A stretch of DNA of 64,000 bases. It comes from Vairimorpha necatrix. Lineage: Eukaryota. Location of the stretch: the NCBI GenBank assembly GCA_036630325.1, contig CP142727.1, positions 310,001 through 374,000 of the forward strand, written 5' to 3'. Shown piece by piece: positions 4,231 through 43,160 of the stretch; positions within the stretch are counted from its first letter, which is position 1; every line of letters begins with the position of its first letter. Under the pieces are notes generated by a model that worked only from the letters and a program-made list of their open reading frames with translations, was not told the DNA's origin and ran no database searches. The position numbers were made by a program, and so were the translations under genes.

Positions 4231-4434
4231 ACTACTTTGCCCATTAAGTAGGTTTACGTTCTAATATGCGGCCTAAATGTGGATTATATCTAGATCTAGA
4301 TTATATAATATTTCAAAGTTGCATATTTAAATTTTCTATAAATTATACCATATTCTTAGAAAATTAAGACCTTTTCTCATAAATCTTATATTAGAAATTT
4401 TAACTATCTTTAGTTAGATGGTCAATAAAATTGA

Positions 4435-5447
4435 GGCTAAAGTTAGTTTTAGGACGCAAATTTCGATATAGGGTTTATTGTTTTTTTGCCCCTTTTTTTA
4501 AAAATGGAAGAAAGAAAATGTGGAGGAAGAATTAGAAATAGTGTTTAAAATCTAATTACTAAAAGACAAAATCAGATTTGCAGTGTGTGTGATTATAGAA
4601 TAAGATTCACGAGAAAATAGAGTTGTGTTTTAATTTGTACCTCGAAAGATTGTAAGAAGCAAACATCGATATGGACGAATACTTTCTTTGAAAACTCCAA
4701 ACTCGATCATATCACAATTTTGCAGGTACTAAATTTGTGAATTTTTGGCTATTCTCGTAAATTTATTTGCCAAATTCTCTGTTGTTCAAAACCTCCGATA
4801 TCTTTTTTACTTAAAAATTAAAGAAATTAAACCTCTATGATAAATATTTATCATCTTTAAACAAGATGGGAGGAGAAGATGTCATTGTTGAAATTGATGA
4901 AACTAAAATCGGAAAAAATAAATATAACAGAGGAAAATTAGCGAAGGGGGTTTGGTGTTTCGGCATGAACGAACGTACTATCGAACGTAAGATTGTGGTT
5001 CTATATATTAAGAAAAGAGATAAAAAACTCTTATAGATCTCTTATTGAAATTCGTTGATACAAAAAGCACTATACATAGTGATATGTGGAGGGCTTATCA
5101 TTCTTTGGGCACCTTATTTAAAAAAACATTATATGGTAAACCATTCATTAAACTTTCGAGTTCCAAATACTGGAGTACTCACCAATACCATTGAAGGTAA
5201 TTGGCGTTCGCTCAAAAATTCTTCTTTAACAGAAATAGGTCCAAAACCAGCGCCAAACTTTATTTACTTAGGTATATGCTCTAGAGAAATTCCTCATATT
5301 CTGTTTTCGATGCATTATTAAATGTATTGTTCTAATTTTAATTTTTGTTCCTTCCTCCACATTTTCTTTCTTCCATTTTTAAAAAAAGGGGCAAAAAAAA
5401 CAAAAAAACCCTATATCGAAATTTGCGTCCTAAAGCTAACTTTAGCC
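4435..5447 (+). mobile_element. Merlin (ISXO2/IS1595-like) DNA transposon, defective
   Basis: About 90-95 bp TIRs starting GGCTAAAGTTAG; perfect 8-bp TSD AAAATTGA (4427-4434, 5448-5455). Confidence 0.92.
4504..5335 (+). pseudogene. Merlin DDE transposase pseudogene (frameshifts and stops)
   Basis: Motifs across frames: IVEIDETKIGKNKYNRG, GVWCFG, HSDMWRAY, VNHSLNF, TNTIEGNWR. Confidence 0.85.
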
Positions 5448-5738
5448 AAAATTGATGCTTGAATATTTGAAACTAGCGACAACCCGAATTAAAATATATT
5501 AAATGCTAAAATATGTGGTCCTTTGAAATTCCTTTTATATATACCCAAGTTTAAGATTTAAACAGCAGGAACAATGTTTTATCAATAATCCGGAATACTA
5601 AAAAATTAATAAAATTTTGATTTATCAAAGTTTATATAATTATTTTAAAACACTTAATAAGTGTTTTTCTTAAATTTTATTTATTCTACCATATAATTTT
5701 TTTTTTTCACTTTATACATTTCTGTTATGTATTATCTT

Positions 5739-5896
5739 TTGCAATATTGCAAACCTTTCTCCCTTTTACAAGGGACATTTGCAATATGTTAAAACTTTCT
5801 TTATTTTACAAGGGACATTTGCAATATGTTAAAACTTTCTCCCTTTTACAAGGGACAGTTGCAATATGTAAAAACCTTTCTTTATTTAACAAGGGA
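5739..5896. repeat. 4 x 40-bp tandem repeat abutting tRNA-Phe
   Basis: gcaata at 5741, 5781, 5821, 5861; unit ttgcaatatgttaaaactttct(ccct/ttat)tttacaagggaca. Confidence 0.92.
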
Positions 5897-5964
5897 GATT
5901 AGCTCAGTGGGAGAGCATTAGACTGAAGATCTAAGGGTCCCGGGTTCAATCCCCGGATCTCCCA
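5893..5964 (+). tRNA. tRNA-Phe (GAA)
   Basis: Acceptor GGGAGAT/ATCTCCC, D arm gctc/gagc, anticodon arm ttaga-ctGAAga-tctaa, T arm ccggg-ttcaatc-cccgg, downstream oligo-T. Confidence 0.96.
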
Positions 5965-24648: not shown

Positions 24649-24734
24649 TAAACGATTCATAAAAACTTATTTACGGTAGACTTATTTAAAGGGAATGTGG
24701 TTTAATTGTCTGCTAGTAAATTTGCAAATGTAAT

Positions 24735-24972
24735 TGACATATCCTAATTCGAAGTATGTCTCTAAAATATTTTTATTTACAATTTTTTTATTTATGTTGT
24801 TAGATATAGGGTTCTTCCCTGTGATTGTTTTCTGTTTAGTTCGTCTGGTGTTCATCGTTGTTGTTGTTTATGTATGGATAAGGGCTGAAATTATATTTAT
24901 AGTTTTATATGTTTGTTGTGTAAACAAACAAACAATTCTTCTTGTGGATCTGTGCTGCACAAAGATACCACA
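24735..24972 (-). repeat. 3' LTR
   Basis: Direct repeat of 28686-28923; preceded on the minus strand by the polypurine tract. Confidence 0.95.
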
Positions 24973-24993
24973 ATCTGCCCTTTCCACCAAAAA

Positions 24994-27900
24994 TCAATAG
25001 CTGGTCATCCTTTTTACATTGTCAATGTGTATCCATTCATTTTTTCCACTTATCTTTAGCCATCTTCCCTTCTTACTAACTACTGTGACCTTGTATGGTC
25101 CTAAATAACAATCATCAATTTTTGATCCTGTAAAATTTTTCAAGAAGATCTTATCTCCAATTTTGAATCTATTAATGTCTTCGTTGTTCGTCATTTCCCA
25201 GTTGCTTGTTTTATTATCAATATTTTTTATAGTGTGCGGTTCATGCTTTCCAACCTGCTTGTTTAAGTCAAACGGGGAATATCCGGTTACTATTGCTATG
25301 GGTTGTTCATGGATCCCTCTATGGAAGTTGATATTCAATCTTCTCATAATCATTTTCGTTACTTTCGCTATATTTTCTCCTCTGTACATTCGTATCACTT
25401 CTGCTATTGTCTGATTTAGGCGTTCACTGATGCCATTTGACGAAGGATGATACATAGGTGTTGCAATCTTATTAATGTTTTGTTTTTCTAAAAATATATC
25501 AAACTCTTTGCTGGTGTATTGCTTTCCATTGTCGCAGATTACTGTTTGTGGGCAACCGAAATCTTCGATCCATTTTTTAAATTCCTTTATTAATTTTGTA
25601 GTAGTTGTTTTTTCCATTAAAATTACTCTTGTATACCTACTGTAAATATCAGTTATCGTCAAAAAAAATGCTTTTTCATTAGGTAACGAGTGTTCGTACT
25701 CTACTATTTCAAACGGGCCAAAAATGTCCGTACTTATCTTCTTCATTAATTGGTCTGATTCTATTTTTAAGCTTTTCTTCTTCTTTGTTTTGATTTTCTT
25801 GCATTTAATGCAAACAATGCATTTGCTGACAACTTGCAAAATTCTCTTTTTTATGTTTTTTATATTGTACTTTCTTTTAATATTCTGATACATAACTGTC
25901 ACTCCTGGGTGTACAGTAAATTTGTGTATTTCTTCGATAAATTCTACGGCCTTTTCTTCATGCACAATGTATCTACCGTGTTTGTCTAATAGATATTTTC
26001 CATCTTTTTCTTTTAAATATCGTTTTATGTAATACTCTAATTCGTCGTGTGAAAGCTTAATCGTAAAGCATCTTGAAAGTTTATCTGCTATATGGTTAGT
26101 CGCACCTTCAATGTTGCGTACCGTTACGTCGTATTCGTTCAATAAAAGTTTCCAACGTTCCGTTCTTTTAGATATCGTTTTATTTTCAAAAATGCAGTTT
26201 CTACTGTCTGTCTGTATCTCTATTCTGTATCCCAGAATAAGCACTCTGTAAAATTCTAATGTTTTAATGATTGCAAACATTTCCTTTTCGACAATCGTAT
26301 AATTTTTCTCCGTGTTGTTGAATTTCCTGCTGTAATACCCTATGACTCCATGGGCCTGAAAAATAACTGCTCCCATGCCTTCATTTGAGGCGTCACATTG
26401 TATAATAAATACTCTTTTAAAATCTGGTAAATTTAGTTGTGCTGACGTTTTTATTTCGTGCTTAATCTTCTTTAAGGCTTTAGTTTGAAGTTCTCCCCAC
26501 TTTTCTTTAGTATTTGCTTGTAGCAGCATTGATATGCAAGCAATTCTTCTGCTAACATCTGGTATAAAATTACGATACCATGTTATTATTCCCATTATTT
26601 TTTGGATTTCTTTCTTAGATGTTGGGGTTGCATTCTCATTTATCAGTTTATCTATATTTTTCGTATCAATTCGTATTTGATTACCTTCTATTATATTACC
26701 TAATATTTCTAGTCGTCTTGTTGCAAACATACTCTTTTCAAAGTTTATTTTCACGTTATATAGAGAGAGTCGATCTAATACTTGAGACAAGGTCTGGTTA
26801 TGTTCGCTAGGTGTCTCTCCATATATCACAATATCATCAATATATATTATTATTTTTTCAATCCCATCTAGTATTAGATTTATTGTTTTCTGAAACAACT
26901 TAGGGCCAGATTTGATGCCGAAAGGTATTCTTTTGTACCTGTATTGTTCTCCAAATATGGTAAAACTTGTAATATCTCTACTATATTCGTCCAGTTCCAG
27001 CTGGTTAAAGCCGTTCTTTAAATCAATCTTGCTAAAAAACGTGTTTCCTCCGAGTTTAAGTAAGTTTTCGAAAATTTTTGGTATTAAGCATATCTCATCC
27101 TTGATGAATCTATTGACTATTCTATAATCAACTACTAATCTTAGTTCCTTTGTTTTCTTTTCAATAAAGAAAGAAGGACTCGCATAGTAGTTTCTGCTTC
27201 TTTCAATTATGTCGTTATTTTGAAGTCGTAATATTTATTTCTTTGCTTCTTGTTCGTATTTTAATGGGACCGTATAATATCTCAGGTCTAACTTATGGTC
27301 TTTAATTTTATCCTCAATGTATAGTTTTATAGGTTTTATGTTGATTTTTTTATAATCATCATTCTTTTTCACATATTCTTTTAATTTGTATGGTATTTCC
27401 GAGTTCTCCACAATTTTAGCATCTTCGATCAATAAGACTCGTTCATACAATATTGCATCCATTTCGTCCTCATTGATCTTATCAGCTCCTATCATAGGTA
27501 TCATATTTTTATGAACCATTACACACTTATTTTTGTAATCCAGTAGCCAGCCATTGTTAAGCAAAAAATCGTTGCCTAGAATCATTTTTACAGGTAGTTC
27601 GTTGTATATGTATACGTCTTCTTCAATTTTTTTCTTTACTCCTTCTAATTTTATCGCTACTCTGGCTTTCTTATGAGTGCGTCCTGTCGATCCGTTTCCG
27701 AATTGGAGTGTTACTTCTTCGGTTTCATACATGTCAAGTTTTAATTCCTTAGCTGCTTCTTCATTCAAAAAACTTCTATTAGCTCCATTGTCTATCATTA
27801 TTTCAATTACTGTATTGTTTATCTTTCCCTTGATTTGTGTCTTCTCAAAGTTATTCACCTTTTCCTTGATGTAATAAAAATTATTTTTCTGATTTTTTCC

Positions 27901-28806
27901 TTTCTGTTTGTTATAAAAATCCTTATCGTATTTTGTGCATTCTTCTGTTGTGTGATTACAGTGCTTGTGAAACTTGCAATATTTGTCAGTAAATTTATTC
28001 GTATTATTGTCGTCTTTTTTGAAAACGCTTTTGCTCTCGTAACTGTCTGAGTTGCGTGTTTCTTTCATCTCTTTAGCTCTGATTCTGATCTTGTTCTCAA
28101 GACTTTTCAAAAATTCAAAAGAGTCCCGATAAGTTCCTAGACCATATTCTATTACTCGACCGTATGTAAACTTTCCTAGTCCTGCGTGGAAGGCTTCGTC
28201 GAATAACTTTTCTACTTCAGCTTCAGTTAACTGTTCCATGGTTTTTATAATTACTAAAATCTCCTTGATTGCGTCATAATAGTCTTGCATCTTTTCATAG
28301 TGAGTCTGATGTATGTTTAATAATTTTCTCCTATAATATCTACGCTCCTCTGGCGGAAACTTAAAAGCTATCAAATATCGCTTGATTTCTCTCCAAGACT
28401 GATTCTTATCAAAATCTACTAATCTCGAATCTTTTATTAGTTGTTTTAGTATTGCAAATTGTATTTGTTTGTTCCATTTGTTCATATTTATCAAATTTTC
28501 AAATTCATCGCACCATTTTATGATGTCGATTACTTCTATCTGTTCTATAATTTTCACTTCTTGTGTTAAATTATGTTCTAATCCTTCTATCTTCATTGAG
28601 AAGGTTAATCCTTTTAATTTCGTTTCTTGGTCAGTTTTTTGTTTCATCTTTATTTCGTTTAGGTTCTCATCTTTTGAGCTCAAATTGACATATCCTAATT
28701 CGAAGTATGTCTCTAAAATATTTTTATTTACAATTTTTTTATTTATGTTGTTAGATATAGGGTTCTTCCCTGTGATTGTTTTCTGTTTAGTTCGTCTGGT
28801 GTTCAT
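24994..28806 (-). pseudogene. gag-pol polyprotein (1271 codons) with a single in-frame TAA at 27235-27237
   Basis: CKFHKHCNHTTEEC, MIDNGANRSF (PR), LRLVVDYR / SKIDLKNGF / YIDDIVI (RT), CDASNEGMGA (RH), H-H-C-C and DIFGP/CDNG/SNGISER (IN), all in one frame. Confidence 0.93.
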
Positions 28807-28923
28807 CGTTGTTGTTGTTTATGTATGGATAAGGGCTGAAATTATATTTATAGTTTTATATGTTTGTTGTGTAAACAAACAAACAATTCTTCTTGTGGAT
28901 CTGTGCTGCACAAAGATACCACA
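28686..28923 (-). repeat. 5' LTR
   Basis: Direct repeat of 24735-24972; contains TATA-like tataaaactataaata, a CCC motif and the ATG at 28806. Confidence 0.95.
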
Positions 28924-30130
28924 GTAATGTTTATACTTAAAAAATCTTTATTTTTTTACATAATTTTATAGGCGTGCGCTATTAAAATATATAAAACTAA
29001 GTATTTCGATCATATTTCAGGAATAATTTTTTTTATTATTTATCTAATAAATGCTCGATTTTATTGTGTAATGAAATGATGTATACAATTATTAGTATTA
29101 CAATTAATGATAATTATTTTTATATTTTGCTTAATAATATTAGTGTGTTTGAAAAATGTTGAATTAGAGCAACTAGCACATCAATGTTTTGCGCATTATT
29201 TATACGTATTAAATTTGTTTTAAAAAAGTTATTTTAGGTGGTTGATTAATACTTAGTTCCTTGTTATCCTTCTTTATTCTTTTATTTGGGAACAAAACAT
29301 TAATTTGACGGTATTAAATTTAAAAGTGTCTTATCAATAATCCGAATTAGATTACACATAATTGGTCTTTGTGGTCACTTATTTACCACGGTAGATATAT
29401 AGGAGTGTCAGTGATTTTTGACTGAGTCCAAGTGTATATCAAATTGAAGACTACTTAAAAAATCACTTAATTTTATAGAGTAAAGGAAAAATATACGAAG
29501 TAAGACTCATGATAAGGAATCTTAGAGCTATCTTATACTTACTAATCAGATATTAAGCAGTATTAAAGAACGAAAAGTTTTATTCTTCTATAAATTACAT
29601 ATTTTAAACTTATATACCTTAAAAATAACTCTCGGTTCGCCATTTTGAATTTTTTTTTTTGAGGGATATATTGAGAATATAAAAGATATTTCAATCTACA
29701 GAGCAGAATACCCGTAAATGAAGACGCAATATGCAAAGACGAGAAGGTGGGGACCCATGGAAGGTACATTTATACTTGGTTTGAGAAATTTATTTGGTTT
29801 TGAATTTATCGATGTTAAAGATCTATAAAAATTAAAGATCCTCTTGATATAGTTTTACACATTTACGAATATTATATATAAAAAAACATGAAATTAAAAT
29901 GCTAATAATCTATTAATATGGATATAATATTTTATTCGTATACTGATCAATTGATTTTCCAATTTTTACTTAAAACAGGCCAAAAAATCAAACGCGGCTC
30001 CAATATTTTATATGACGATCAAGAAATTATAAGTAAAGTAGGTTTTATTTATTAAGCTAGTGCAGAGAAAGTAGAAAAACTATTTTTTACCTTAAAAAAT
30101 TAATAAGATTGTTATAATTCATTATTTTAA

Positions 30131-35054: not shown

Positions 35055-35704
35055 GGTACATGACCGTTTGGAACCCGCTTTGGGAAAATGAACCAGCATT
35101 GAAATTTTAAAGGACCCCCCTTTAAAAAAATGGCAAAATTGGCAAAAACAATGTTTGTTGAGGCAGATGAGGTTTTTAGTGATGAAATGTATTCATTCAT
35201 GGAATATAAAGAAAAGTTTATTTTGGAAACATTTGATGCTGAATCGACGTGCGCCTTGATCGTTTCTGTAACTTATAGAAATACTGCTTTTCCTTGAGGT
35301 AATACAAGAAAATGTATAACCTGTTTCTCTTATGATCTCTAATCAATGGATAGCATATGATGCCACATTAGCTAAGCGAAGGGATGGAGCACAGTACTAA
35401 GAATCACTCCATAAATGCTATAACATCTAGCGATTCTGAGTCACAACACCATATAATTTAGTTAGTTTTGGCTCATTTCGATAAGAGATATTCGATCTTA
35501 ACATAAACAAAGAAGAACACTATGAGTACCTTTTACAGTTTCACTGGGCTTTCCAAATTCCCAAAAATCACCGGAAAAATTGTCTTCTGTCATTATTTAA
35601 AATAAATCGTTAAGTCCCTTTTTTTTTTTTTTATTTTTCCCTTTTTTTGAATTTTTTCAATGCGGGTTCATTTTCCCAAAGCGGGTTCCAAACGGTCATG
35701 TACC
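35055..35704 (+). mobile_element. Second Merlin-type element, internally deleted and non-autonomous
   Basis: About 50-bp TIRs GGTACATGACCGTTTGGAACCCGCTTTGGGAAAATGAACC; 8-bp TSD TATTTTTT; remnants FVEADE and QWIAY. Confidence 0.88.
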
Positions 35705-42907: not shown

Positions 42908-42974
42908 ATTTAAACTTTAAATTACATATTTTATTATTTCGATTCTTTATAGTTAAAGTCTTAATTTATATTTA

Positions 42975-43160
42975 AAATGTGTTTTACAATTTCAACTTTT
43001 TTTAAATGAGTTACACAATTTCAACTTTTTTTTAAATGAGTTGTACAATTTCAACTTTTTTTTAAATGAGTTGTACAATTTCAACTTTTTTTTTAAATGT
43101 GTTTTACAATTTCAATGAATTTTTTAAAATGTGTTTTACAATTTCAACATTTTTTTAAAT
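42975..43160. repeat. About 6 x 30-bp tandem repeat between convergent genes
   Basis: Unit aaatgWgttNtacaatttcaacttttttt. Confidence 0.9.

Follow-up and report, generated by a model that had tools for sequence, protein, structure and literature searches.

A 12-bp palindrome at the primer-binding-site position in a clade of Ty3/Gypsy elements of the microsporidian Vairimorpha necatrix

In the genome of Vairimorpha necatrix, a clade of Ty3/Gypsy elements carries a perfect palindrome where a tRNA primer-binding site (PBS) is expected. A tRNA primer, bound at the position now held by the palindrome, is the usual start of copying in LTR elements. The data fix four points: the palindrome stands in the PBS register, the tRNA site is excluded, the length is exactly 12 bp, and the symmetry is kept rather than the sequence. 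As judged from the sequences, the palindromic PBS is confirmed as a clade trait and not a single-copy oddity.

The element in the window

The window is the whole stretch of DNA that was analysed, 64,000 nucleotides of contig CP142727.1 (positions 310,001 to 374,000). It contains a Ty3/Gypsy element on the minus strand, spanning positions 28923 to 24735. The 5' LTR (28686..28923, minus strand) and the 3' LTR (24735..24972, minus strand) are identical, 238 bp long and of the form TG...CA. A 5-bp target-site duplication (TSD), GTAAT on the plus strand, flanks the element (28924..28928 at the 5' side and 24730..24734 at the 3' side). With its identical LTRs and TSD, the element is a young copy. 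A polypurine-tract (PPT) region (24973..24990, minus strand; …GGAAAGGGCAGAT) adjoins the 3' LTR. The TG...CA LTRs, a TSD within the range of 4–6 bp, the PPT ahead of the 3' LTR, and the polyprotein domain order PR-RT-RH-IN are all those of Ty3/Gypsy elements.

The first ATG of the polyprotein frame is at 28806, within the 5' LTR, and the frame crosses the palindrome as N-L-S-S-K. The gag-protease part (27238..28806, minus strand) scored above the cut-off for the aspartyl protease and below it for Retrotrans_gag. It is followed by an in-frame TAA (27235..27237, minus strand), which interrupts the polyprotein of this copy, and by the part with RT, RNase H, and integrase (24994..27234, minus strand), without a chromodomain hit. 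The RNase H catalytic motifs were seen in the RT-RNase H alignment. The TAA is absent from two sister copies, both with a single open frame of 1274 codons. These copies differ from the window element at 23 and 29 of 4,189 bases and have the same palindromic site. The best protein matches of the window element were microsporidian (Nosema, Vairimorpha, Dictyocoela, and Hamiltosporidium).

LTR positions 38–124 (window ~28800–28886) form a TTGTTTG-rich stem-loop segment common to 24 other short genome matches, a possible promoter or polyadenylation element of several families. Elsewhere in the window, two inverted-repeat pairs look like MITE or DNA-transposon ends (35055–35704, 50 nt at 98%; 4429–5453, 76 nt at 83%). 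Tandem arrays of ~30-nt units (42968–43159) and ~40-nt units (5738–5888) were also observed, the second just upstream of a tRNA-Phe gene (5893–5964).

The palindrome and its occurrence at LTR edges

In minus-strand reading, ...GGATATGTCA (28686) closes the 5' LTR; a single spacer base, A (28685), the palindrome TTTGAGCTCAAA (28684–28673), and AGATG follow. No TGG is present at this junction. The preliminary description had placed a perfect 12-bp palindrome just inside the 5' LTR, at the place of the PBS, and it is indeed seen there, one base inside the LTR. The same description had found neither TGG nor a self-priming complement in the LTR, which proved correct as well: the best match of the site in the LTR was 8/12, the same as in shuffles (mean 7.7).

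Genome-wide, TTTGAGCTCAAA occurs 24 times vs. once for a reversed control, and 20 of the 24 copies are LTR-leader junctions. None of the four non-element copies was covered by an Rfam family. In two cases, the 12-mer lies ~30 nt downstream of a tRNA-Ser(GCT) gene, past the T-run terminator, probably by chance in a duplicated segment. A generic degenerate palindrome pattern gave 2,809 matches in the genome vs. 2,169 for its control.

The survey of LTR edges covered 127 genome stretches. Of these, 30 came from a DNA search, 17 surrounded further copies of the 12-mer, and 80 were chosen among the 150 RT matches listed. Overall, 78 elements with TSD-confirmed ends were called, and two that had been miscalled (truncated 3' LTRs) were removed (n = 76). 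At the LTR edge, 58 elements had a perfect palindrome (12 bp or longer) and 18 had TGG. The two features were mutually exclusive, since each of the 76 elements had one of them, none both, and none neither. Nine of the 58 palindromic elements had been fetched on account of their palindrome; this bias does not affect the other 49. When the two removed elements were inspected, together with 11 of the 14 repeat pairs lacking a confirmed TSD, seven palindromes and six TGG sites were seen. The palindrome at the LTR edge in 58/58 non-TGG elements compares with a chance rate of 0.5%, as palindromes of at least 10 bp centred 5–8 nt from a random internal position were found at 963 of 193,994 positions.

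Relative to the LTR end, the palindrome starts at −1, +1, or +2, and the TGG of the tRNA-primed elements at 0 to +3. The terminal A of the LTR is inside the palindromic duplex in 4/58 elements. Eleven different central 12-mers coexist in the genome, among them TTTGAGCTCAAA, GTTGAATTCAAC, GTTAAATTTAAC, TTTGATATCAAA, TATGACGTCATA, and AATGAGCTCATT.

Several further peculiarities were observed. One family has a perfect 24-bp palindrome spanning the LTR end, as would be expected had plus-strand synthesis run beyond the primer site into U5. Five short copies (2.6–2.7 kb) without RT, located at several sites, keep both LTRs and a perfect palindrome and are possibly a non-autonomous, still mobile subfamily. 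The LTRs of one family begin with TA, not TG, and the LTR of one element ends with TA, not CA; the TSDs are intact in both cases. The purine tract of most palindromic elements ends with GG-Y-AG and two more bases before the 3' LTR (e.g., window 24973–24979), and in most TGG elements purines extend up to the 3' LTR or close to it. The plus-strand primer end may therefore also differ between the two clades.

Flank-anchored patterns, blind to the site itself, were applied to three families. All 13 junctions of the first family and 12 of the 14 junctions of the second were perfect. The third family gave 11 perfect junctions and one with 8 bp of symmetry followed by unrelated sequence; its remaining pattern rows were 3' or solo LTR ends. 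In the second family, each of the two imperfect copies contains a G·T mismatch and shows decay, with stops in RT and with 14 differences from the subfamily in ~600 nt in one copy and ~199 in the other. Decay after insertion is the simplest reading of these mismatches. The spacer base varies within families (A/T in one, T/G in another).

Symmetry and covariation across the clade

The RT-RNase H tree comprised 88 sequences and was midpoint-rooted, with no formal root; 17 elements with too short an RT piece were omitted. All 41 palindromic elements on the tree grouped with microsporidian database proteins, and a single branch with FastTree support of 1.0 parted the palindromic elements from 17 TGG elements and 10 other Gypsy proteins. 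The amino acid that follows the third RNase H aspartate was S or N in 38/38 aligned palindromic elements (three more were gapped) and H in 17/17 TGG elements, other Gypsy proteins being mixed; in this alignment it tracks the clade.

According to parsimony on the RT tree (41 elements), at least 16 two-sided changes occurred in the palindrome, the minimum numbers at pairs 1 to 6 being 6, 0, 1, 0, 2, and 7. The innermost pair underwent at least six two-sided changes and took all four Watson-Crick forms (AT, GC, TA, and CG). The preliminary description had proposed to check whether the palindrome is conserved with compensatory changes across copies and relatives, and this was the case: the palindrome is kept, and two-sided changes occur clade-wide. 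Hairpin loops need at least 3 nt. The innermost pair thus cannot form in a hairpin, and its covariation indicates that two strands are paired.

Pairs 1–6 hold in 23/23 family representatives and pair 7 in only 6/23, which gives a sharp 12-bp edge; a count made on 22 of these representatives showed no unpaired cell at the six pairs. The covariation score was 0.372 vs. 0.111 for shuffled sequences (0/500) and ≤0.116 for slid pairings, with controls that ignore relatedness and a scored structure derived from the same sequences. Pairs 2 and 4 show no variation, a sign that sequence-specific or coding demands may act as well; with T and A fixed, the core reads TRA-NN-TYA.

At the DNA level, the evidence is from this single genome, and other species were reached through protein sequences only. 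In palindromic and tRNA-primed families alike, the gag frame begins within the 5' LTR and continues across U5 and the PBS. In Ty1, the gag frame likewise starts within the 5' LTR. Since the frame crosses the site in both clades, database proteins record the site. A 5-mer codable by a clade-type palindrome was found within the first 90 residues of 11/22 database proteins (background 12/10,901 positions). Two of them were set aside, one matching a family of the own genome and one with the 5-mer at a misfit position. The remaining nine (five from Nosema granulosis, one each from Hamiltosporidium and Dictyocoela, and two others) are compatible, at the protein level only, with the palindrome in other species. 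The other 11/22 proteins were without such a 5-mer, and for most of these the annotated start seems to lie downstream. Across families, the palindrome is read in two frames (L-N-S and F-E-F-K), so coding constraint alone fails to explain it.

The outgroup consisted of distantly related Gypsy elements on metagenome and viral contigs (83 loci, 25–35% identity). None of the 49 with a called LTR pair, which came mostly from one assembly and had some rough boundaries, showed a palindrome of at least 10 bp at the LTR edge. No relatives were found by a single-protein metagenome scan and a prokaryote-genome scan, and a gag-region protein search gave three hits and no new relatives.

Tests of known primers

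The tRNA set consisted of 42 host genes (40 of the 63 listed, equal-score copies being skipped, and two more) and contained no His, Val, or named Tyr. The longest match of the window site to these tRNAs was 2 nt at the 3' end and 7 nt internally. The 23 palindromic junction types matched the 42 tRNAs over 1–2 nt at 3' ends and 5–8 nt internally. As the positive control, 8/9 TGG junction types matched 3' ends of tRNA-Ser or tRNA-Leu over 10–14 nt. Priming by a tRNA 3' end or an internal segment was rejected on the short matches to the 42 host tRNAs.

The search for LTR complements was extended to 29/29 junction types: the best complements had 7–10 matches, none above shuffles (lowest fraction 0.10), and priming of the Tf1 type was rejected. 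A second arm like CHSeq2 of the GalEa element was rejected as well, as only 1/31 junctions reached 8/9 matches; the window element had 5/9. The Rfam scan over the window element gave no hits at E ≤ 1.

The window 12-mer had a self-duplex energy of −15.3 kcal/mol, which is expected of any palindrome, and a hairpin energy of 0.0. Overall, isolated hairpins had 0 to −1.1 kcal/mol vs. −8.8 to −15.5 kcal/mol for duplexes. Flank pairing above shuffles (z < −1.64) was found in 10/33 palindromic junctions vs. 1/9 TGG junctions. The LTR and leader of the window element folded no better than shuffles (z −1.5). Predicted folds often loop out the central 4 nt of the palindrome; this was not so in the window element.

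A possible mechanism of priming

The position of the palindrome, the loss of the tRNA site, the strict clade-wide symmetry, the covariation of the innermost pair, and the fixed 12-bp length were directly observed, and from them we infer a route through an RNA dimer, cleavage, priming, and repair. In the reading that we favour, and to which we give an even chance of being right, two genomic RNAs pair through the palindrome, and one of them, cut by RNase H, primes the other. The palindrome would serve as the element's primer-binding site, and the element's own RNA would act in trans as the primer. Two genomic RNAs packaged together would pair antiparallel across the 12 bases, and, close to the 3' edge of the duplex, the RNase H of the element would nick one of them, as the Tf1 RNase H does on an RNA:RNA duplex. 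RNase H cleavage of an RNA duplex into a primer is established for Tf1, according to the accessible text (PMC7175516). The 5' fragment, consisting of R-U5 and the site, would remain paired, and its 3'-OH would start minus-strand strong-stop DNA with the partner RNA as the template. Later, plus-strand DNA would copy the primer into the reverse complement of the site, and this complement would pair with the site's minus-strand copy to allow the second strand transfer. This transfer would require full symmetry, and a one-sided mutation would give a heteroduplex resolved as a two-sided change. Copying of the primer into plus-strand DNA would be a one-step route to two-sided changes.

Since the terminal A of the LTR lies within the duplex in a few elements (4/58), the primer end is probably one base inside the duplex, after base 11; the data suggest such an end or a retained ribonucleotide. 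If the primer ended after base 11, the extra bases following CA would number 0, 2, or 3, which is within the 0–3 range of the tRNA-primed relatives. The preliminary description had supposed a non-canonical primer, either through pairing of two RNAs or from a tRNA fragment. The general supposition and the RNA-RNA option agree with a palindrome that, in the sequences compared, is kept through two-sided changes. The tRNA-fragment option had to be abandoned: the longest match was 7 nt for the window element and did not exceed 8 nt in any palindromic family, and there are 11 different 12-mers.

Alternatively, the element might prime itself in cis: one RNA would be cut behind the site, and its end would snap back as a 4-bp stem with a 4-nt loop, aided by U5-leader pairing. 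Full symmetry would then be needed only when the second strand transfer takes place, to another RNA left uncut. Many monomer folds do show the site as a 4-bp stem-loop atop a longer U5-leader stem, and the excess of flank pairing in palindromic over TGG junctions points weakly in the same direction. Fold-back priming combined with a symmetric second strand transfer fits the covariation as priming in trans does, and it stays viable because this transfer would likewise demand full symmetry. However, the hairpins are far less stable than the duplexes, 23/33 junctions are without flank pairing, and the predicted folds of the window element change with the stretch folded. We consider such priming in cis possible, though unlikely.

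The palindrome could also be only a dimerisation or packaging signal, comparable to the retroviral DIS or Ty1 PAL1/PAL2, priming being done by something unseen, for instance a protein primer or a site in another place. Dimerisation of Ty1 RNA is driven by self-complementary palindromes (PMC6844567, accessible part), and covariation of the innermost pair fits any intermolecular duplex. Known dimer palindromes, however, come in addition to a PBS, as far as the accessible text of PMC5445492 goes, whereas here the palindrome stands in the PBS register, and it and TGG exclude each other in 76/76 elements. Moreover, it is a primer lying 0–3 nt away that has to define the LTR end, and this is exactly the place of the palindrome. 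A purely dimerising role is therefore improbable.

We see little prospect for a site that acts at the level of double-stranded DNA, as the target of a dimeric protein (integrase or a host bZIP-like factor), or that is kept by a gag coding constraint. The TRA-NN-TYA core and the gag frame open across the site in both clades are in keeping with these roles, but a binding site should keep its letters at the centre and the ends, both of which take all four pairs, the site is read in two frames, and neither role supplies a primer. Priming by a host RNA, be it a tRNA fragment, a missing tRNA, or a small RNA, is very improbable and largely refuted by the covariation. The tRNA set is incomplete in His, Val, and named Tyr, and two exact 12-mers do lie near tRNA-Ser(GCT) genes. 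Yet these copies are beyond the terminator and, like the other non-element copies, outside any Rfam family, the palindromic types fall well short of the tRNA matches of the TGG types, and eleven 12-mers would demand as many host RNAs. Chance, an assembly artefact, or a repair scar (P-nucleotide palindrome) is refuted, with practically no probability left, by the presence of the palindrome in all three full copies of the family and in 58 separate insertions with their own TSDs, against the 0.5% background.

Relation to known elements

The closest published case is the Conserved Hairpin Site (CHSeq1/CHSeq2) of the fungal Ty1/Copia element GalEa, proposed as a stand-in for the PBS (Donnart et al., 2017; PMC5445492); in the accessible part of that paper, the palindromic site is left unexplained. 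The shared features are the absence of a tRNA PBS, a short conserved palindrome adjoining the 5' LTR, and the absence of an LTR complement, as reported in the same part. GalEa, however, is a Copia element, whereas the window element is Gypsy by domain order. CHSeq1 has 10 bp including the last A of the LTR vs. 12 bp here, with that A included in only 4/58 elements, and the GalEa site has a second arm 12–41 bp downstream, as described there, which 30/31 junctions lack here. In addition, 11 sequence variants with two-sided changes occur in our elements.

Tf1, Tf2, Tj1, and sushi elements are likewise Gypsy and tRNA-independent, and at their PBS an RNA:RNA duplex of 11–12 bp forms, which RNase H cuts in Tf1 (accessible texts of PMC7175516 and PMC4600332). 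According to the same texts, the Tf1 primer is the transcript's initial 11 bases and is LTR-encoded, whereas no complement was found here in 29/29 junction types. The Tf1 PBS, as presented in the part of PMC5445492 available, is not palindromic, unlike the site described here. The retroviral DIS and Ty1 PAL1/PAL2 are similar in being self-complementary, near the 5' end, and able to join two genomic RNAs (PMC6844567, accessible part); they coexist with a tRNA PBS, whereas here the palindrome occupies and replaces it. The dictyostelid Skipper is also a Gypsy element with a replaced PBS, no LTR complement, and priming unexplained in the accessible text (PMC5006619). Its site, in the same text, is a polypyrimidine run and not a palindrome, and the elements bear a chromodomain.

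The three microsporidia-specific Ty3/Gypsy groups of Parisot et al. (2014) resemble the present elements in their single polyprotein, microsporidian relatives, and several clades per genome (PMC4202319, main text); PBS, primer, tRNA, and palindrome are not mentioned in that main text. In the accessible literature, with most subscription papers and supplements outside it, we came across no palindromic PBS reported for Gypsy or microsporidian elements, a result that does not establish its absence from print.

Significance

How reverse transcription starts without a tRNA site is the question addressed here, the GalEa and Skipper sites being without a mechanism. The site described here belongs with the tRNA-independent priming sites, and there is a real chance that its mechanism is new. 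The V. necatrix genome holds palindromic and tRNA-primed Gypsy clades together and offers 11 natural variants of a fixed 12-bp length in three registers relative to the LTR end. Beside tRNA priming and Tf1-type self-priming in cis, there could be a third start of LTR reverse transcription, a proposal for which we see the arguments as evenly balanced. RNAs would pair via a palindromic PBS, and one, after cutting, would prime the other; dimerisation and priming would be one step, and the site would be re-symmetrised in each cycle. Such a start would have originated independently in microsporidian Gypsy and fungal Copia elements, which would explain the GalEa site. If this is true, these elements would have a host-independent priming route, packaging of two genomes would be obligatory for them, and annotation tools based on the PBS would mis-score a whole class of active elements.
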